Origin: Escherichia phage vB_EcoM_G2540-3
Sequence record: MK327944.1
Reading direction: 5' to 3' (one strand)
Length of the DNA: 64,000 nucleotides
The stretch's first letter is position 1. Every line of letters begins with the position of its first letter. Of this stretch, positions 1 through 49,115 are shown in pieces. The notes under the pieces were generated by a model that did not search any database, was not told where the DNA came from, and saw only the letters and a list, made by a program, of their open reading frames with translations. The position numbers were made by a program, and so were the translations under genes.

Positions 1-1320
1 GGAGTAGTAGCTCTTTATCCAGGCGAGTTGGGCGATAAAATCGAAATCGAAATCGTATCTAAAGCTGACTACGCAAAAGGAGCTTCTGCATTACTCCCAA
101 TTTATCCAGGTGGCGGAACACGCGCATCTACTGCCAAAGCAGTGTTTGGATATGGACCACAAACTGATTCGCAATACGCTATTATAGTTCGTCGTAATGA
201 TGCTATTGTTCAAAGCGTTGTTCTTTCAACAAAGCGTGGTGAAAAAGATATTTACGATAGTAACATCTACATTGATGACTTTTTCGCAAAAGGCGGTTCA
301 GAATATATTTTCGCAACTGCACAAAACTGGCCAGAAGGATTCTCTGGAATTTTAACTCTGTCTGGTGGATTATCATCAAATGCTGAAGTAACAGCAGGAG
401 ATTTGATGGAAGCTTGGGACTTCTTTGCTGACCGTGAATCTGTTGACGTTCAGTTGTTTATTGCGGGTTCTTGTGCCGGTGAATCTTTAGAAACAGCATC
501 TACTGTCCAAAAACACGTCGTTTCAATTGGGGATGCTCGCCAGGATTGCTTAGTATTGTGCTCACCACCGCGCGAAACTATAGTTGGAATTCCTGTAACT
601 CGCGCTGTTGATAACTTAGTCAATTGGAGAACCGCAACAGGTTCATACACTGATAATAACTTTAATATCAGTTCAACCTACGCAGCAATTGATGGTAACT
701 ACAAATATCAGTATGACAAATATAATGATGTCAATCGCTGGGTTCCATTAGCAGCTGATATTGCCGGTTTATGTGCAAGAACCGATAACGTTTCTCAGAC
801 TTGGATGTCTCCAGCTGGTTATAATCGCGGCCAGATTCTTAACGTTATTAAACTTGCTATTGAAACTCGCCAAGCTCAGCGCGACCGTTTATATCAAGAA
901 GCTATCAACCCAGTAACTGGTACAGGTGGTGATGGTTACGTATTATATGGTGATAAAACAGCTACTTCTGTTCCTTCTCCATTTGATCGTATTAACGTTC
1001 GTCGTCTGTTTAATATGTTGAAAACGAATATCGGACGTAGTTCAAAATATCGTTTGTTCGAATTAAACAACGCGTTTACTCGTTCATCATTCCGCACAGA
1101 AACTGCCCAATACTTACAGGGAATTAAAGCTCTCGGTGGAATTTATGAATATCGTGTAGTTTGCGATACAACAAATAACACTCCGTCAGTAATTGATAGA
1201 AATGAGTTTGTTGCAACATTCTACATCCAACCGGCGCGCAGTATAAATTATATTACTTTGAATTTCGTCGCAACTGCTACTGGTGCAGACTTCGATGAGT
1301 TAACTGGTCTTGCAGGTTAA
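1..1320 (+). CDS. 18: tail sheath protein gp18, C-terminal part (5' end upstream of window)
   Basis: Frame 1 is open from base 1 to the stop at 1318-1320; product reads as myovirus tail sheath; gene 19 follows. Confidence 0.9.
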   Translation, partial: GVVALYPGELGDKIEIEIVSKADYAKGASALLPIYPGGGTRASTAKAVFGYGPQTDSQYAIIVRRNDAIVQSVVLSTKRGEKDIYDSNIYIDDFFAKGGSEYIFATAQNWPEGFSGILTLSGGLSSNAEVTAGDLMEAWDFFADRESVDVQLFIAGSCAGESLETASTVQKHVVSIGDARQDCLVLCSPPRETIVGIPVTRAVDNLVNWRTATGSYTDNNFNISSTYAAIDGNYKYQYDKYNDVNRWVPLAADIAGLCARTDNVSQTWMSPAGYNRGQILNVIKLAIETRQAQRDRLYQEAINPVTGTGGDGYVLYGDKTATSVPSPFDRINVRRLFNMLKTNIGRSSKYRLFELNNAFTRSSFRTETAQYLQGIKALGGIYEYRVVCDTTNNTPSVIDRNEFVATFYIQPARSINYITLNFVATATGADFDELTGLAG

Positions 1321-1977
1321 TTGATTATGGGGCTTCGGCCCCTATTCTCGAGGAAACAAGTGATTATTTCTAAGTTTGTTAAAGTGAAAATTGTACCATC
1401 AAATTTTAAACATTATCAATCAAAGGGTTATAAATTAACACCTCTTGGAGCGGTTAAACATGGATTTAGGTATTATGAAATTGATGTTAAAGTTGAAGAC
1501 ATTAAAGGTAGTACCGCGTATGTAAAATGTCGTTGCGATAAATGTGGAATTGAATATAACCAACGCATTGGAAGAAACACTGATATTTGTCGTGATTGCT
1601 GTCATAAAGATAAAATGCGCAATAATTCATATGGTTCCGCGAATAAAGGAAAAACAGTAGAATGTATGCATGGCGTAAATCATCCAAGATGGAACCCAAA
1701 TAAATCTGAAATGCGTGAATATATTTCATTGGTATATAAAGAAACTCGTAAGCATAAGAAAATTTGGTCAAAATGGCCAAATGCTGATAAAATAGGAGTG
1801 TGTGGTACAAAAGGTGCTTACCAACTTGATCATAAGGTATCTATCAAATACGGTTTTGATAATTTAATTCCTGCTAAAATAATTGGCGGTATTAATAATT
1901 TAGAAATAATCACTTGGGAATCTAACCGAGAAAAATCAAAAAGAAATAGTGTAGATCTTTGGGATTTACTAGAATGA
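1321..1977 (+). CDS. HNH-type endonuclease-like protein with N-terminal Cys-rich zinc-ribbon-like segment
   Basis: C-terminal CGTKGAYQLDHKVSIKYG...NNLEIITWESNREKSK fits the HNH (His-Me finger) pattern; upstream CRCDKCG...CRDCCH cluster; start codon uncertain (TTG 1321 or ATG 1327, inside hairpin). Confidence 0.6.
   Translation: MIMGLRPLFSRKQVIISKFVKVKIVPSNFKHYQSKGYKLTPLGAVKHGFRYYEIDVKVEDIKGSTAYVKCRCDKCGIEYNQRIGRNTDICRDCCHKDKMRNNSYGSANKGKTVECMHGVNHPRWNPNKSEMREYISLVYKETRKHKKIWSKWPNADKIGVCGTKGAYQLDHKVSIKYGFDNLIPAKIIGGINNLEIITWESNREKSKRNSVDLWDLLE
1329..1342 (+). terminator. GGGGCUUCGGCCCC hairpin (UUCG tetraloop) just 3' of gene 18
   Basis: Perfect 5-bp GC stem with UUCG loop; no clean U-run, so may be a stability or attenuation hairpin rather than a strong terminator; overlaps first codons of the HNH ORF. 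Confidence 0.35.
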
Positions 1978-1984
1978 TTCTAAA

Positions 1985-2002
1985 GGCCTGTTTCGGCAGG
2001 CC
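1985..2002 (+). terminator. hairpin GGCCUG-loop-CAGGCC after the HNH ORF
   Basis: Inverted repeat ggcctg/caggcc directly after stop at 1977. Confidence 0.4.
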
Positions 2003-2062: not shown

Positions 2063-2070
2063 TATAAATA
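2063..2070 (+). promoter_or_regulatory. T4-type late promoter TATAAATA upstream of gene 19
   Basis: Exact TATAAATA 15 nt before the gene 19 ATG; a second copy at 2004-2011. Confidence 0.6.
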
Positions 2071-2084
2071 CTACAGAGGCTAAT

Positions 2085-2576
2085 ATGTTTGTAGATGATG
2101 TAACACGAGCGTTTGAATCTGGTGATTTTGCTCGACCTAACTTATTCCAAGTAGAAATTTCTTATCTTGGACAAAATTTTACGTTTCAATGTAAAGCCAC
2201 TGCTTTACCAGCTGGTATTGTAGAAAAAATTCCAGTCGGATTTATGAACCGTAAAATTAACGTAGCAGGCGATCGTACATTCGATGACTGGACTATTACA
2301 GTAATGAATGATGAGGCGCATGATGCACGCCAGAAGTTTGTTGACTGGCAAAGCATTGCTGCTGGGCAAGGAAACGAAATTACTGGTGGAAAACCAGCAG
2401 AGTATAAAAAGAGTGCTATTGTACGCCAATATGCTCGTGACGCTAAAACTGTAACAAAAGAAGTCGAAATTAAAGGCCTGTGGCCTACTAACGTGGGTGA
2501 ACTTCAGTTAGATTGGGATTCAAACAATGAAATCCAAACCTTTGAAGTAACTCTCGCTCTCGATTATTGGGAATAA
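2085..2576 (+). CDS. 19: tail tube protein gp19
   Basis: 163 aa; MFVDDVTRAFESGDFARPNLFQVEISYLGQNF... matches T4 gp19. Confidence 0.95.
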   Translation: MFVDDVTRAFESGDFARPNLFQVEISYLGQNFTFQCKATALPAGIVEKIPVGFMNRKINVAGDRTFDDWTITVMNDEAHDARQKFVDWQSIAAGQGNEITGGKPAEYKKSAIVRQYARDAKTVTKEVEIKGLWPTNVGELQLDWDSNNEIQTFEVTLALDYWE

Positions 2577-7963: not shown

Positions 7964-7978
7964 TCTTTGACGATTTAA

Positions 7979-7994
7979 GGGACCTTCGGGTCCC
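7979..7994 (+). terminator. rho-independent terminator after gene 23 (GGGACCUUCGGGUCCC + U-rich tract)
   Basis: GC stem with UUCG loop followed by tttagttgttttt. Confidence 0.6.
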
Positions 7995-8011
7995 TTTAGT
8001 TGTTTTTATGG

Positions 8012-8019
8012 TATAAATA
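8012..8019 (+). promoter_or_regulatory. late promoter TATAAATA upstream of gene 24
   Basis: Exact TATAAATA 27 nt before the ATG. Confidence 0.55.
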
Positions 8020-8046
8020 AATCATATAAACCAAAAGGAAAGCGCA

Positions 8047-13720: not shown

Positions 13721-15229
13721 ATGGATATTAAAGTACATTTTCACGACTTCAGTCATGTACGCATCGATTGTGAAGAGAGCACGTTCCACGAATTAAGAGA
13801 TTTCTTTTCGTTTGAGGCCGATGGATATAGATTTAACCCTCGCTTCAGATATGGCAACTGGGATGGACGAATCCGTCTTTTAGATTATAATCGTCTTCTT
13901 CCGTTTGGCTTAGTCGGGCAAATTAAAAAGTTCTGTGATAACTTTGGCTATAAAGCCTGGATTGACCCGCAAATTAACGAAAAAGAAGAATTATCAAGAA
14001 AAGATTTTGATGAATGGCTTTCTAAATTAGAAATCTATTCAGGAAATAAAAGAATTGAACCGCACTGGTATCAAAAAGATGCAGTGTTCGAAGGATTAGT
14101 TAATCGTCGTAGAATTCTTAATCTTCCAACATCCGCAGGTAAATCTTTAATTCAAGCTTTGCTTGCACGTTATTATTTGGAAAATTATGAAGGTAAAATT
14201 CTTATCATTGTTCCAACAACTGCTCTGACAACTCAGATGGCTGATGACTTCGTCGACTATCGTTTATTCAGTCATGCAATGATAAAGAAAATTGGTGGCG
14301 GAGCATCAAAAGATGATAAATATAAAAATGATGCACCAGTCGTTGTTGGTACATGGCAAACTGTAGTTAAACAACCGAAAGAATGGTTCTCACAGTTTGG
14401 AATGATGATGAATGATGAATGTCATCTTGCTACAGGAAAAAGTATTTCATCTATCATATCAGGTTTAAATAACTGCATGTTCAAATTCGGTTTGTCTGGT
14501 TCATTACGTGATGGCAAAGCCAATATCATGCAGTATGTTGGAATGTTTGGTGAAATATTTAAGCCAGTAACGACTTCTAAATTAATGGAAGATGGACAAG
14601 TAACTGAGCTAAAAATTAATAGTATTTTTCTTCGCTATCCAGATGAGTTCACTACTAAATTAAAGGGAAAAACTTATCAAGAAGAAATAAAAATTATTAC
14701 TGGGCTCAGTAAAAGAAATAAATGGATCGCTAAATTAGCTATTAAGCTTGCGCAAAAAGATGAAAACGCTTTTGTCATGTTTAAACATGTATCACATGGT
14801 AAAGCTATTTTCGATTTAATTAAAAACGAATACGATAAAGTTTATTACGTATCAGGGGAAGTTGATACAGAAACCCGCAATATAATGAAAACCTTAGCTG
14901 AAAACGGTAAAGGAATAATTATAGTAGCTAGTTATGGTGTATTTTCTACTGGTATTTCAGTTAAAAATCTGCATCACGTTGTTTTAGCACACGGTGTTAA
15001 ATCAAAAATCATTGTATTACAAACAATCGGTCGTGTATTACGTAAGCATGGTTCTAAAACAATCGCAACAGTCTGGGACCTCATAGATGACGCGGGTGTA
15101 GTTTCTAAATCAAAAACATCTTCTAAAAAATACTCGCATTTAAACTATCTTTTAAAACATGGACTTGATCGTATTCAGCGTTATGCTGATGAAAAGTTTA
15201 ATTATGTGATGAAAGAGGTTAAACTTTGA
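13721..15229 (+). CDS. uvsW: UvsW DNA/RNA helicase (SF2)
   Basis: 502 aa; Walker A LPTSAGKS, DEAH-box-like MMNDECH, C-terminal helicase motifs. Confidence 0.95.
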   Translation: MDIKVHFHDFSHVRIDCEESTFHELRDFFSFEADGYRFNPRFRYGNWDGRIRLLDYNRLLPFGLVGQIKKFCDNFGYKAWIDPQINEKEELSRKDFDEWLSKLEIYSGNKRIEPHWYQKDAVFEGLVNRRRILNLPTSAGKSLIQALLARYYLENYEGKILIIVPTTALTTQMADDFVDYRLFSHAMIKKIGGGASKDDKYKNDAPVVVGTWQTVVKQPKEWFSQFGMMMNDECHLATGKSISSIISGLNNCMFKFGLSGSLRDGKANIMQYVGMFGEIFKPVTTSKLMEDGQVTELKINSIFLRYPDEFTTKLKGKTYQEEIKIITGLSKRNKWIAKLAIKLAQKDENAFVMFKHVSHGKAIFDLIKNEYDKVYYVSGEVDTETRNIMKTLAENGKGIIIVASYGVFSTGISVKNLHHVVLAHGVKSKIIVLQTIGRVLRKHGSKTIATVWDLIDDAGVVSKSKTSSKKYSHLNYLLKHGLDRIQRYADEKFNYVMKEVKL

Positions 15230-15918
15230 ATTATAAATTAATATATGATAATTTAATTAATAGAGCCCAAAATCGGGCTCGCCTTAATGGATACACTGAA
15301 ACACATCATATAATTCCTAGATGTATGGGTGGTACAAATGATAAGTGTAATTTAGTAGAACTAACGGCTGAAGAACATTTTATAGCCCATAAACTTTTAG
15401 CTAAAATTCATCCAAACCATTACGGTATAATTAAAGCTGTTATATGTATGGGGATGAATTCAAATACTCATGAAAGACACGTTAATAAATCTTACGCATG
15501 GGAACGTCGTAAAATGGCAGAACTTCAATCCGGCGAAGGTAATCCATTTTACGGAAAACACCATACGGAAGAACATAAACAATATATGTCAAAACTCATG
15601 AAAAGTCGTCCAATTACATGGGGAAATAAAATTAGTAAAACTAAAAGAATGAACCCAACGAAATGGACTGAAGAAGCTAAAAGATTACATTCAATCAATC
15701 AATCGGGTAAAAATAACGGCATGTATGGAAGGAAACATTCCGCTAAATCTATTCAGAAAATTAAAGATAACATGCCAGATAATTCAGGAGCTAATAACCC
15801 AGCTGCTAAACCTATAGAAGTAAATGGTGTTAAGTATAAATGTATGAAAGATGCTTCTAAAGCTACTGGATTATCAATGTACAAACTAAGAATACTTAGA
15901 AAAACAGTTAATTTATAA
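15226..15918 (+). CDS. HNH homing endonuclease-like protein (MobE paralog) inserted between uvsW and uvsW.1
   Basis: 230 aa; MNYKLIYDNLINRAQ...ETHHIIPRCMGGTNDKCNLVELTAEEHFIAH parallels the mobE-like ORF at 42097-42831; NUMOD3-like GKHHTEEHK repeats; TTG start overlapping uvsW stop. Confidence 0.8.
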   Translation: MNYKLIYDNLINRAQNRARLNGYTETHHIIPRCMGGTNDKCNLVELTAEEHFIAHKLLAKIHPNHYGIIKAVICMGMNSNTHERHVNKSYAWERRKMAELQSGEGNPFYGKHHTEEHKQYMSKLMKSRPITWGNKISKTKRMNPTKWTEEAKRLHSINQSGKNNGMYGRKHSAKSIQKIKDNMPDNSGANNPAAKPIEVNGVKYKCMKDASKATGLSMYKLRILRKTVNL

Positions 15919-35557: not shown

Positions 35558-36783
<1,226 letters not shown>

Positions 36784-40333: not shown

Positions 40334-41424
40334 CGTTATGTTCGATTGAGCTCGCTAATTCTCAACCCGTTCTCTTATGAACTGCTACATATTACTATGC
40401 AGACCAGACTATATCACAATCCCAGAGGGATTCTCCCCATTTCGAGTCGCTTGACCCTACGTCCGAAGACTAGTCGTTGAACCTTGCTTTGCAATTGTCG
40501 CCGTGCCATCGTTTATATGTTGATGGTGATAAATCTTTCTTATCACAATATGGACAATTCAATTGAATTCTATTTGGATTTAATTTACATCTGTCATTAT
40601 GTTTTAGATAAAATCCAGGACCTTTACCAATGTGACCGCAGAAATCACATGTGATTTCTTTTTGTGCAGGATGGGTCCCGTTCTTAACCATTTCTAATGT
40701 TTTTGCTGATGTTCTTTTCTTATGGTCTTCTGACAAGAAATGATGTGAACTGTCATTTACCCGTTTTGATTGAGTTTCTGACTGCATTTTACCACCGCAA
40801 AATACATGAGTACCTTCTTTTATAGCTGCAATATTGCGTTCTTTAACTTTTGCAATATGCTCAGCTTGTTGAAAATTATGTATACCTAATGCAACTCTAT
40901 TTAAATTAGATTTACGCTGTATTTCACCGTCTAAAAGATGAAATGTACCATTTTCTATCTTAGATTTAATAGAGGCAATATTTTTAGCTCGTACTTCAGG
41001 GATATTAAAAATCTGGATTTCTCTAGATTTTGCGGCTTTAGAAGCTAATTCAGAAATTTCTTCAGGAGAATATTTCATTCTAAGCTTTATAGCATGACAA
41101 GCCTGGTAATCTTTTTGAGCTAAATGTATATCATAATGTTCCTGTATAGAAAGGCACATCAAATTATCTAAATCATTATTTTCACGGTTACCGTCTTTAT
41201 GATGGATTTCGTATGTTCTTCCATCGGAATCTTTAGGTATAGGTCCGTTAGCATCTATCCAAATTTTTCTATAGTTCAATTGTGCATCCTCTTAAAAGTA
41301 TAATCATATTTATATTATACTAATTAAAGGTGCAAGCAAAACCTTGGCTGCTAGTTTTCCTATAAAGGACTTTCCAGCAATTAAAGGAGTTTTCGATAAA
41401 CGTTACCGTTTAAAGGCGCATTTT
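40334..41424 (-). mobile_element. group I intron in nrdB carrying I-TevIII (about 1091 nt)
   Basis: Exon 1 frame stops at TAA right after ...YVSFA; 3' region shares core elements with the td intron; boundaries inferred by joining to give ...YVSFAC/TFNFHKNMEIMEGNAKI. Confidence 0.65.
40470..41279 (-). CDS. I-TevIII: intron-encoded HNH homing endonuclease I-TevIII, full length
   Basis: 269 aa; YEIHHKDGNRENNDLDNLMCLSIQEHYDIH HNH motif plus C-terminal Cys zinc-finger region; apparent TTG start. Confidence 0.8.
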   Translation of the reverse strand: MNYRKIWIDANGPIPKDSDGRTYEIHHKDGNRENNDLDNLMCLSIQEHYDIHLAQKDYQACHAIKLRMKYSPEEISELASKAAKSREIQIFNIPEVRAKNIASIKSKIENGTFHLLDGEIQRKSNLNRVALGIHNFQQAEHIAKVKERNIAAIKEGTHVFCGGKMQSETQSKRVNDSSHHFLSEDHKKRTSAKTLEMVKNGTHPAQKEITCDFCGHIGKGPGFYLKHNDRCKLNPNRIQLNCPYCDKKDLSPSTYKRWHGDNCKARFND

Positions 41425-42100
41425 ACGCAAAAGATACATAAAAACGAATAGCTTCTAAGGCATTAATAACGTGTAAACAGAGGTAAAGAGACTTCATTAA
41501 AGCACGTTTAGCTTCGGCTTCTTGTTTAATAGCTCGGTTTAAACGAAAGTCGGCATCAGGAGATTCTTTAGCTAGTTCTACAAATTCTTTAGCATTTTCC
41601 CATTCACGGGTTTTAACCAAGACATCATCATAATAACGTCCAATGGACTCAGCGCGTTTCATAATATCTTCATCTAATACAATCTCATCAAATACCTTTG
41701 ATGGGTCAGTATAAAGATTTCGCATGATATGAGTATATGAACGGCTGTGAATAGTTTCACTAAAAGTCCATGTAGCAACCCATGTATCAAGACTTGGGTC
41801 TGAAATTAATGACATAAGTACTGCAGACGGTGCACGACCCTGAATGCTATCCAAAAGTGATTGATACTTCAGGTTATTAGTAAAAATATCTTGCTGATAC
41901 TGAGGAAGCTTGTTAAATTGTGCAGCATCCATCATTAAGTTTACTTCTTCAGGACGCCAGAAAAATGACAACTGCTTTTCGGTTAAATCTTCAAAAACTT
42001 TATGACGTTGAATATCATAACGCGCAATACCAAGACCTGAACCAAAAAACATAGGTTCTTTTAAAACATCAACTGGATTTGTATTAAAAACTGTGCTCAT
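41425..42100 (-). CDS. nrdB: ribonucleotide reductase small subunit NrdB, exon 1
   Basis: MSTVFNTNPVDVLKEPMFFGSGLGIARYD...RFYVSFA; ATG overlaps the mobE-like stop (ATGA). Confidence 0.8.
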
Positions 42101-42831
42101 AAATTTTTCCTCTTTAAAATTCTGCCGTGTTTCCAACCTGGCGGTATAATATCATCTTTACCTATAAGCGTGCATTCACTTCCATTATTAATCCATTTCT
42201 TACCGCGGATTCCTTTATAATCTCTTGGTTTTATTTTGTCAAACTTTGCATCAAGTTGATATGACCATCTAAATCCATAAGCATATTGAAATTTACCCTC
42301 GGCACAATATTTGATATTTGACCCGTTTCCATTAACTGACCGGGACGCTGCCGCAATAGAGTGAAAGGTTTCTATGAAATCCCCATCTAATGAGAATTTA
42401 TGTATTTCTACAGATGGGCACGCATATCTATTCACGTTAGATACATGCTGTTTAGTTTCGTTTTTATGATGCTTGCCTAGCATCCCTTTAGGATGAGGAT
42501 TATTTTTCCAATATTTCTTAAAGAACTCAGAATTAGCTTTAGCAAATAATTTTCTGTGTAAGCTGTACAATCTGTTATTAATTCTATTGCCAGCTTTATC
42601 TGTTGCCATTAACGTTAACGCAGAGGCAAGACCAAAATGGCCTTCATTTATCTTACATAGTAATAGATGAGCTATAAAATGTTCTCTGGCTGTTAATTCA
42701 ACTAAATTTTCCTTATCATCAGAACCTCCCATACATTTAGGGATTATATGATGTGTCTCTTTATATTCTAGTAAAGATTCCCGAGCCTGAGCTCGGGAAA
42801 TTAGGTCGTTATAGATTTTTTGATAATTCAT
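42097..42831 (-). CDS. mobE: HNH homing endonuclease (MobE-like) wedged between nrdA and nrdB
   Basis: 244 aa; ETHHIIPKCMGGSDDKENLVELTAREHFIAH; start overlaps nrdA stop (TAATG), stop overlaps nrdB start (ATGA). Confidence 0.8.
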   Translation of the reverse strand: MNYQKIYNDLISRAQARESLLEYKETHHIIPKCMGGSDDKENLVELTAREHFIAHLLLCKINEGHFGLASALTLMATDKAGNRINNRLYSLHRKLFAKANSEFFKKYWKNNPHPKGMLGKHHKNETKQHVSNVNRYACPSVEIHKFSLDGDFIETFHSIAAASRSVNGNGSNIKYCAEGKFQYAYGFRWSYQLDAKFDKIKPRDYKGIRGKKWINNGSECTLIGKDDIIPPGWKHGRILKRKNL

Positions 42832-47528: not shown

Positions 47529-47572
47529 TTAGTACCTTATATAAATTATAATACATTTTATGAAGCTAATAA

Positions 47573-47932
47573 TCAATACGGTTTAGCATCAAATTTTCTT
47601 TCAATTTCAGGCGTGAAATATAATTCTTTACCGCGTTTGGAAAAGCGACCAATAATATGATAATTATTCTCATCAAACGTAATATTGCCAATATCCATAG
47701 CTTTCAACCAAATATCGATATTTCTGTCAAGCTTTATATCAAAATTCCAATACGGAGAACTATTACCGAAAATACTACAAGCGGATTCAGTGAAACAGCT
47801 GCTATAAATCTTGTCTTTAGGAACTACTAATTGATAGACGCCTTTAATAAACTGAGGACCCTGCCATTTTGGTTGTTTCGCGTCTTTTTCTAATAGAATA
47901 GGGTAATAATTAAAATTCATATTTTCCGCCAC
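47573..47932 (-). CDS. hypothetical protein between frd and td
   Basis: 119-aa ORF; no motif recognised. Confidence 0.5.
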   Translation of the reverse strand: MAENMNFNYYPILLEKDAKQPKWQGPQFIKGVYQLVVPKDKIYSSCFTESACSIFGNSSPYWNFDIKLDRNIDIWLKAMDIGNITFDENNYHIIGRFSKRGKELYFTPEIERKFDAKPY

Positions 47933-47940
47933 GCGTTATT

Positions 47941-48528
<588 letters not shown>

Positions 48529-48771
48529 TCAAAACCCCCTTTCAATAAACCATTCAGTGGCTTTATTAGCATCAAAGAATAATTCTTCATATGTCTTTTC
48601 TTTGTTTTCAAAGACTGTCACACAAACACGTTGACATTCTCCACAGTATTCTTCTGACATGCTCAAAGCGTCAGAAAACATTTCATTAAATTCATTTAAA
48701 TCAGGATTATGCAATGCGTTAAAAATTGCATAATCGAATTCATCATTCATAAATTCAAATACAAAAATCAT
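48529..48771 (-). CDS. hypothetical protein (frd.1-like)
   Basis: 80-aa ORF. Confidence 0.5.
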   Translation of the reverse strand: MIFVFEFMNDEFDYAIFNALHNPDLNEFNEMFSDALSMSEEYCGECQRVCVTVFENKEKTYEELFFDANKATEWFIERGF

Positions 48772-48779
48772 ATTATCTC

Positions 48780-49115
48780 CTAATATAAAGGATCGGGAAT
48801 ATATCCACTGGCTTTAATCATTTTAATTAACGTTAACATTCCTTTATTAACTGCTTGTGAGATTTCATTAAAAACTTCATCACTAAAAAGTTCTAACACG
48901 CCCTTCTGAACTTTTAATTTACAACCAACAATTTCGTCATCGCCTATAGTAAATTCGTTTCCGCCAATTCCACCGAAAAACTTAATTACGCCAGTTAACT
49001 GTCTTCCACGAGAATATGGGTCGTGTGATAAAGTAATATGAGTCACCCCAGGTACAGTTTTAAATTGGCAGCGAATGTTTACTTGTGAAATTCCAGTTAC
49101 GTGAATGTCAGACAT
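48780..49115 (-). CDS. hypothetical protein (frd.2-like)
   Basis: 111-aa ORF. Confidence 0.5.
   Translation of the reverse strand: MSDIHVTGISQVNIRCQFKTVPGVTHITLSHDPYSRGRQLTGVIKFFGGIGGNEFTIGDDEIVGCKLKVQKGVLELFSDEVFNEISQAVNKGMLTLIKMIKASGYIPDPLY

Follow-up and report, generated by a model that had tools for sequence, protein, structure and literature searches.

A putative free-standing HNH homing endonuclease gene directly behind the tail sheath gene of a T4-like Escherichia phage

In the T-even phages, the reference system for intron-less homing, the Mob enzymes (MobA–E, with T4 MobE located between nrdA and nrdB) are encoded by free-standing, intergenic genes beside conserved essential genes, are sporadic in close relatives, and have a leader RNA hairpin before the open reading frame (ORF). 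Phage homing endonucleases are typically modular, in a ‘beads on a string’ build (PMC2988022), and in the intron-encoded I-TevI (a GIY-YIG enzyme) and I-TevIII (an N-terminal HNH enzyme) a catalytic domain is tethered to a modular DNA-binding region with a zinc finger, with specificity in a separable half. Hef of phage U5, also free-standing and T4-related, originally had ‘no similarity to known homing endonucleases’; it is a Vsr-like endonuclease (PMC3239194), and Hef-like genes adjoin tail genes in LIMEstone1 (PMC3296691). An ORF at positions 1321–1977 of a 64,000-nucleotide stretch of Escherichia phage vB_EcoM_G2540-3 (sequence record MK327944.1; the whole stretch is hereafter the window) shares these genomic traits with the Mob genes, along with predicted HNH chemistry and a cut site presumed to lie in the neighbouring gene, away from the insertion, and is quite likely a free-standing HNH homing endonuclease gene cassette inserted directly behind the tail sheath gene (gene 18). 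Despite the reference status of these phages, the ORF is labelled ‘hypothetical’ nearly everywhere, a few automated annotations calling it ‘homing endonuclease’ or ‘type II restriction endonuclease’, and its deposition in 1994 as T6 ORF19.1 is the only prior naming found. In the census of Petrov et al. 2010, the eight homing endonuclease genes (HEGs) of RB3 appear, on a reading of the flattened table, to be four seg-like, two mob-like, and two intron-encoded, so that the RB3-type ORF was apparently uncounted.

The window is a segment of a Tequatrovirus (T4-like) genome whose left end lies inside gene 18, with the gene order 18, ORF, 19, 20; over its first 2.7 kb it shares 99.3% identity with Escherichia phage 132 and 97.1% with RB3. 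The original prediction, made from the DNA letters and a list of ORFs, described a 218-codon ORF (1321..1977, + strand) in a gene 18–19 spacer that is short in T4, and the ORF, its quoted C-terminal peptide and Cys cluster, and a T4 spacer of 116 nt without the ORF were all recovered. In the junction alignment these 657 bp stand where T4 has 9 nt (TACGGTGCA), a filler common to seven ORF-less Tequatroviruses (T4, T2, RB32, slur03, O157 typing phage 7, 310Ecol104PP, and PE37). The insert ends on its right exactly with the stop codon of the ORF, and it is not until base 657 of the query (window 1977) that T4-type records begin to align. Among the 788 phage records matching the region, the ORF was present at the gene 18–19 site in 117 (~15%); presence in all relatives would be expected of the conserved non-nuclease gene that the original prediction had set against its own reading. 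Records with the ORF carry either the RB3-type allele (protein at a minimum of 95% identity in 47 records) or the T6 ‘ORF19.1’ allele, and T4, T2, and RB32 carry neither, as shown by the junction comparison that had been proposed. Presence/absence polymorphism with exact edges at a fixed site was found both in Tequatrovirus and at the same site in the Klebsiella Jiaodavirus (688-bp indel; ORF in 42 records, many without). Two matching entries are probably mislabelled or contaminated: MG010123.1 (‘Staphylococcus phage SAJK-IND’) is T4-like, with 97.9% identity over 2.7 kb, and PV654520.1 (‘Pseudomonas phage vB_PSGBLB0006’) is T4-like sequence that encodes a T6-type homologue.

Beyond Tequatrovirus, full-length relatives occur directly behind the tail sheath gene in phages of Klebsiella, Acinetobacter (Mokit), Serratia (CHI14), Aeromonas (AS-zj), and Sinorhizobium (phiM12), such that a position next to this conserved essential gene was found in six genera, including Tequatrovirus; in phiM12 the gene that follows the ORF is not gene 19. 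In Campylobacter phage CP21, only the C-terminal domain is matched (31% of the query, E = 1e-4), in a protein encoded among pieces of a split sheath gene. The CP21 tail sheath (NC_019507, 1–6186) is annotated as four pieces (CP21_078, 077, 076, and 074), among which stands CP21_075, a 388-aa (amino acid) ORF whose C-terminus matches the HNH domain, and three more putative homing endonuclease genes lie just downstream.

The C-terminal half of the product is predicted, from its motif and its modelled fold, to be an HNH/His-Me-finger nuclease domain of the D-H...N...N type. In a 35-member family alignment, the invariant C-terminal residues were Q155, D157, H158, S161, Y164, G165, N180, L181, W186, N189, and K192, and a profile of the C-terminal 106 residues recovered 3711 cluster representatives (E ≤ 1e-3) from a library of 1.84 billion proteins; across 45 diverse domains the sole invariant columns were D157, H158, N180, and N189. 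In the confident AlphaFold models (predicted local distance difference test [pLDDT] of 85.3 over the full protein and 94.7 over the domain alone), strand 1 ends in D-H, strand 2 opens with N180, and N189 sits in the helix that comes next; this is the beta-beta-alpha-metal core of the HNH superfamily, with the catalytic His ending strand 1 and with both the structural Asn (N180) and the metal-ligand Asn of the helix (N189) invariant. When the family profile was aligned with the SpCas9 HNH domain by hhalign (P = 0.0022; the SpCas9 query was checked against PDB, 286 bits to SpCas9 774–908), the catalytic register was kept, with YQLDH paired to YDVDH (D839-H840) and NRxKS to N863-R-G-K-S. Motif invariance, model topology, and this alignment together bear out the HNH identity first proposed for the C-terminus, though the Cys cluster that had been read with it belongs to a separate zinc ribbon ~65 residues upstream, in the variable half of the protein. 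The ratio of nonsynonymous to synonymous substitution (dN/dS) among ORF alleles is ~0.08–0.25, so the ORF is maintained by selection.

The N-terminal half consists of a small beta/alpha unit, a C4 zinc ribbon, and a basic linker, and would be the part that reads the DNA sequence. Within the ribbon, C59, C62, and C77 are invariant and C80 is present in most members of the family alignment; weak matches to PF14311 (DUF4379, ‘treble clef’) occurred in 10 of the 35 members, along with a weak match to mitoribosomal mS66, and the predicted model of this region is a beta-hairpin followed by a helix. This is also the half in which the two alleles differ. Between the RB3-type and T6/PST alleles the leader (1321–1381) is 100% identical and the 3′ portion (1759–1977) ~90–100% identical, while positions 1382–1758 share ~40–50% nucleotide identity, i.e. 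are unrelated. T6 ORF19.1 is thus an allelic partner with the same locus, the same leader, and an HNH half of ~92% amino acid identity, but with another cassette over its N-terminal 125 residues (27% identity), and its function is unannotated. The protein family includes five independent pairs of the two types, A and B, in which the C-terminal halves are 92–99% identical and the N-terminal halves 26–36% identical, and this pattern suggests that cassettes A and B, which alternate in at least five lineages, are two old recognition modules exchanged on lineage-specific backbones, with a putative difference in DNA specificity. Relatives of the C-terminal domain are fused to other modules, including NUMOD3, resolvase-type helix-turn-helix domains (HTH_7/HTH_23), DUF7487, and DUF4379, a variety in keeping with the modular construction of phage homing endonucleases (PMC2988022).

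Set against the described systems, the protein resembles I-TevI and I-TevIII in its tethered catalytic domain and separable specificity half, but it is neither GIY-YIG nor intron-encoded, and its HNH domain is not N-terminal. Unlike the Mob enzymes, in which an N-terminal HH-type HNH domain (HH...N...H) precedes NUMOD modules, the HNH domain is C-terminal, its motif is DH...N...N, and the DNA-binding half is a zinc ribbon in which a Pfam scan gave no significant NUMOD3 match. A tblastn search of the ORF against the window detected no similarity to the two Mob-like ORFs at 15226–15918 and 42097–42831 and no paralogue, and with the domain order reversed as well, the protein is not Mob-like. A relationship to Hef, prompted by the weak CP21 match and the presence of Hef-like genes in such phages, was also rejected, since Hef is Vsr-like and the ORF model lacks a Vsr-like catalytic fold (Hef/EDxHD). 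The best structural neighbours are the Cas9-type HNH domain (HNH_4, PF13395) and the small phage HNH nucleases Gme HNH (4h9d) and GVE2 HNH (5h0o); they share the beta-beta-alpha-metal fold with the ORF product, and Y-x-[LV]-D-H ... N ... N-R-x-K-S is in register. Similarity to these groups is below family thresholds, the biological context differs, and the ORF product has an extra N-terminal helix (~115–130) and two short helices between the strands.

Immediately upstream of the insert, the 3′ end of gene 18 differs from that of T4 by 11 substitutions in 35 nt (1236–1269), every one synonymous, compared to five in the next densest 35-nt stretch within 1.3 kb of gene 18 (permutation test, 0/20,000 reaching 11, p < 5e-5). 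The I-N-Y codons at 1243–1251 are ATA AAT TAT in the window and ATT AAC TAC in T4. Among sampled carriers of the close subfamily, 10 of 10, from three genera, have ATA AAT T(A/T)T, and ATT AAC TAC occurs in T4, RB32, slur03, 310Ecol104PP, PE37, Roth80, and Mineola. Klebsiella phages, both carriers and non-carriers of the ORF, have the hotspot at the same position and with the same codon variants: Roth16 (ORF present) and Roth80 (ORF absent) are identical over 650 nt and then have 29 third-codon differences in the last ~90 nt of gene 18, with the downstream flank essentially identical, an asymmetry expected if gene 18 is cut and co-conversion then proceeds towards the ORF. The RB3-type and T6-type alleles are each linked to their own gene-18 haplotype, the T6/PST allele to a third one that includes a T-to-Q change, and the gp18 motif KPARSINYI(T/Q)LNFVA is conserved out to phiM12. 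The tract is a putative target or immunity tract, or else the left end of a co-conversion tract.

The free-standing homing endonuclease of the original prediction draws support from several separate lines, namely the motif and fold, the precise indel in two genera, selection on the ORF, the recoded gene 18 tract, and the NUMOD3-type relatives, and the cleavage, target position, immunity, and mode of expression inferred for the product are as follows. During mixed infection the enzyme would cut gene 18 of ORF-less relatives within its highly conserved 3′ end, around the codons A-R-S-I-N-Y-I-T (~1236–1269), 50–85 bp upstream of the insertion point, with H158 as the putative general base, N189 and D157 presumably holding the metal, and N180 in a structural role. 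Recombinational repair from an ORF-bearing genome would then copy the ORF together with the recoded tail of gene 18, and the carrier would be protected by its own synonymous codons, ATA AAT TAT instead of ATT AAC TAC. Expression is presumably low and late, by gene 18 read-through past the leader hairpin and from a weak GTG start.

Several observations weigh against this reading. No cleavage or homing data for the ORF were found in the literature searched. No match came from Pfam, a search suggested at the outset, or from NCBIfam, whether the query was the ORF or the consensus of its family; no significant match was obtained to a curated HNH profile (Pfam HNH, HNH_2–5, and others), none of 37 homologous clusters had a Pfam domain, and a few relatives had sub-threshold HNH_4 or HNH_5 matches (Pfam HNH_4 in 4/147). 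The PHROGs assignment is family 5104, ‘unknown function’. PDB sequence searches (phmmer and hmmsearch, with the protein and profiles A2, A3, and A5) returned nothing significant, only zinc-finger, leucine-rich repeat, and mS66 noise and a non-significant Cas8f-HNH match (E = 0.74), and Foldseek against PDB was likewise without a significant match. The link between ORF and haplotype is not exclusive, because ORF-less T2, O157 typing phage 7, and KpV477 have the carrier codons and the RB3-like gene-18 tail is found in 117 records compared to 47 with the RB3-type ORF; carrier haplotypes without the ORF could stem from its loss, from acquired immunity, or from standing variation. The more distant carriers CHI14 and AS-zj use ATT/ATC AAC codons, other variable blocks exist in gene 18, and the haplotype sample is small (16 Tequatrovirus and six Klebsiella loci) and composed of phylogenetically related sequences. 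Further, one locus across many genera could also mean an old accessory gene that is often lost.

A nuclease kept mainly for inter-phage competition or exclusion, cutting or nicking co-infecting relatives, or as a defence or anti-defence factor whose own spread is secondary, is compatible with the data and inseparable from homing in this analysis, but is an unlikely main role. T4 homing endonucleases mediate partial exclusion of T2 markers (PMC2993671, PMC2988022), SegB was recently described to help immune evasion (PMC13096335), and purifying selection along with two maintained specificity cassettes suggests a benefit beyond pure selfishness. The biochemistry would be the same as in homing and hard to tell apart computationally, and no match to a defence system beyond the generic HNH fold was obtained, PADLOC not having been searched.

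It is also improbable that the gene 18 hotspot is unrelated to cleavage and arose either by ordinary mosaic recombination or because ATA AAT TAT creates a late-promoter-like TATAAATT (1242–1249) that drives the ORF. This octamer is a 7/8 match to the late-promoter core TATAAATA and is present in RB3-type, T6-type, and Roth16 carriers, and no perfect late promoter stands in the leader of the window ORF, in contrast to the leaders of CHI14 and Mokit, which possess TATAAATA. However, the carriers PKO111, 15882-3, and Mokit have GATAAATT, the same motif occurs in ORF-less T2, and the recoding reaches well past the motif (11 sites in Tequatrovirus, 29 in Klebsiella). A second TATAAATT occurs inside the ORF (1429–1436, codons Y-K-L).

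Less probable still is an old accessory gene of the tail or packaging module, repeatedly lost and not mobile, such as a terminase HNH partner of the kind present in HK97-like and GVE2 phages. The ORF is missing from T4, T2, RB32, and ~85% of close relatives, all fully viable, and from most Jiaodavirus phages; the indel is bounded exactly, next to a recoded gene-18 tract; its N-terminal half swaps as a cassette, and its relatives bear sequence-specific DNA-binding modules. Dispensability and cassette behaviour thus make a terminase or tail accessory role unlikely, and the T4 terminase is not known to require an HNH partner. That the ORF is an inactive relic, as the third-motif His now being Asn (the last H of H-N-H is N189) and the loss of HNH-core zinc ligands (the CxxC pairs common in HNH domains, down to C148) might indicate, is hardly credible, as D-H...N...N is the arrangement of active enzymes such as the Cas9 HNH, the four catalytic residues are invariant across thousands of relatives, and dN/dS is well below 1.

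Within the homing endonuclease reading, a broader proposal can be put forward tentatively, as possible though doubtful in its full extent: the ORF would belong to an unrecognised, widespread HNH homing endonuclease lineage whose members track the sheath gene's 3′ end throughout the T4 superfamily (Tevenvirinae, Twarogvirinae, Emmerichvirinae, Emdodecavirus, and possibly Eucampyvirinae), at a dimorphic locus where two ancient, interchangeable cassettes (A and B) sit on a lineage-specific HNH half, each matched to its own synonymous gene 18 ‘immunity’ recoding. If true, this would make visible an arms race between two endonuclease specificities over a shared gene 18 target.

The most likely start of the ORF, judged from sequence conservation and signals, is GTG 1360. 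This is the annotated start in the RB3 and phage 132 records, the 1994 T6 entry remarks that the ORF ‘likely begin by GTG’, and in the family alignment conservation sets in exactly at M-I-I; the in-frame extensions upstream of M-I-I that are called in some clusters are unrelated between lineages. The alternatives TTG 1321 and ATG 1327 were rejected in favour of family-wide conservation and the Shine-Dalgarno (SD) sequence, though some records use the ATG. A hairpin after gene 18 was correctly predicted (1329–1342, −12.7 kcal/mol, in both the minimum free energy and centroid folds), but the accompanying proposal that the start lies inside it and that RNA structure throttles translation is not supported, since the likely start, GTG 1360, is downstream of the stem: the GC stem follows the gene 18 stop, ends ahead of the SD, and leaves the start uncovered. 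Sequestration of the SD by the hairpin was considered and set aside, pairing of 1348–1351 with 1321–1324 being weak and non-robust. Stable hairpins of differing sequence occupy the same position in the Klebsiella, Acinetobacter, Serratia, Sinorhizobium, and Aeromonas relatives, and T4 too has a hairpin just after gene 18, so the cassette may supply gene 18 with a new 3′ hairpin in place of the old one, and this hairpin would also restrict read-through into the ORF. The homologue leader of Klebsiella phage Roth16 (2433–2513) has a TGATATAAT that resembles an extended −10 element, along with a 13-bp hairpin (z = −4.9) that immediately precedes the SD and GTG.

Downstream of the insert, a hairpin (1985–2002) and two TATAAATA boxes are present as predicted, but they are not the ORF's own: all are 100% identical with the ORF-less spacer of T4, T2, and RB32 and are thus ancestral gene-19 signals. 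A terminator scan scored neither this hairpin nor the one at 1329–1342 as an intrinsic terminator, and Rfam and tRNA scans of the window returned no match. Coordinates are collected in Table 1.

Table 1. Positions of features around the gene 18–19 junction, numbered from the first nucleotide of the window
Feature	Position	Strand	Basis or remark
Gene 18 (tail sheath), 3′ two-thirds	1..1320	+	94.9% identity to T4 99196-100516; tail sheath label in all relatives
Synonymous-substitution hotspot, codons A-R-S-I-N-Y-I-T-L-N-F-V	1236..1269	+	11 differences compared to T4
Insert relative to T4, T2, RB32: leader hairpin, SD, ORF	1321..1977	+	657 bp in place of TACGGTGCA
Hairpin GGGGC-UUCG-GCCCC (GGGGCUUCGGCCCC)	1329..1342	+	Directly after gene 18 stop, upstream of SD
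Shine-Dalgarno GAGGA	1350..1354	+	5 nt before GTG 1360; annotated ribosome-binding site in phage 132
Most likely coding sequence, 205 aa + stop, RB3-type allele of T6 gene 19.1	1360..1977	+	GTG start
Variable N-terminal half (‘cassette A’), residues ~8-133, presumed DNA-binding	1382..1758	+	Unrelated to T6/PST allele here only
Zinc ribbon/treble-clef C59-x2-C62 ... C77-x2-C80	1534..1599	+	Conserved Cys, weak profile matches
Conserved C-terminal half, common to both Tequatrovirus alleles, holding the predicted HNH core	1759..1974	+	Allele comparison
Predicted HNH (HNN variant) catalytic core, D157-H158 ... N180 ... N189-x2-K192	1828..1935	+	
Ancestral hairpin GGCCUG-UUUC-GGCAGGCC of 18–19 spacer, outside insert	1985..2002	+	Identical in T4
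Two T4 late-promoter cores TATAAATA for gene 19, ancestral	2004-2011, 2063-2070	+	Sequence match
Gene 19 (tail tube)	2085..2576	+	ORF list and annotated relatives

Elsewhere in the window, several other insertions and losses relative to T4 were observed. A 230-aa Mob-like HNH ORF (15226–15918, +; ETHHIIPRCMGG...NLVELT..EHFIAH, then NUMOD3-like GxxxPxYGKxHxxE repeats) fills a 678-bp insertion (T4 ~114,178) at the 3′ end of uvsW/uvsW.1. The nrdB intron region holds a full-length 269-aa I-TevIII-like HNH ORF (40470–41279, −) that is 476 bp longer than the truncated copy of T4, as in RB3, and at the nrdA–nrdB position a 244-aa Mob-like HNH ORF (42097–42831, −) is longer than and divergent from T4 mobE, in a region unalignable with T4. 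The window lacks segD, which in T4 spans 789 bp between genes 23 and 24; the flanks lie only ~60 bp apart (7975–8034). Three further insertions, near pseT (36464–36776), in td–frd (47532–47935), and in frd–frd.1 (48537–49058), contain small minus-strand ORFs of 106, 119, 80, and 111 aa.

Overall, the ORF probably encodes a free-standing HNH homing endonuclease from an unstudied family, and elements of this kind are commonplace in T-even phages; the current view of phage biology is unchanged and a well-known theme extended. The combination of locus fidelity, a recoded target, and a dimorphic reader half makes for a moderately interesting pattern at the level of the family. The C-terminal domain has thousands of relatives outside any Pfam model, such that a curated family would better the annotation of phage nucleases, and the RB3-type and T6-type alleles are a natural specificity-swap pair for studying how homing endonucleases change target. 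If active, the enzyme would possess a new HNH architecture, with a C-terminal HNN core and an N-terminal zinc-ribbon reader, and would explain a mosaic boundary within an essential structural gene.

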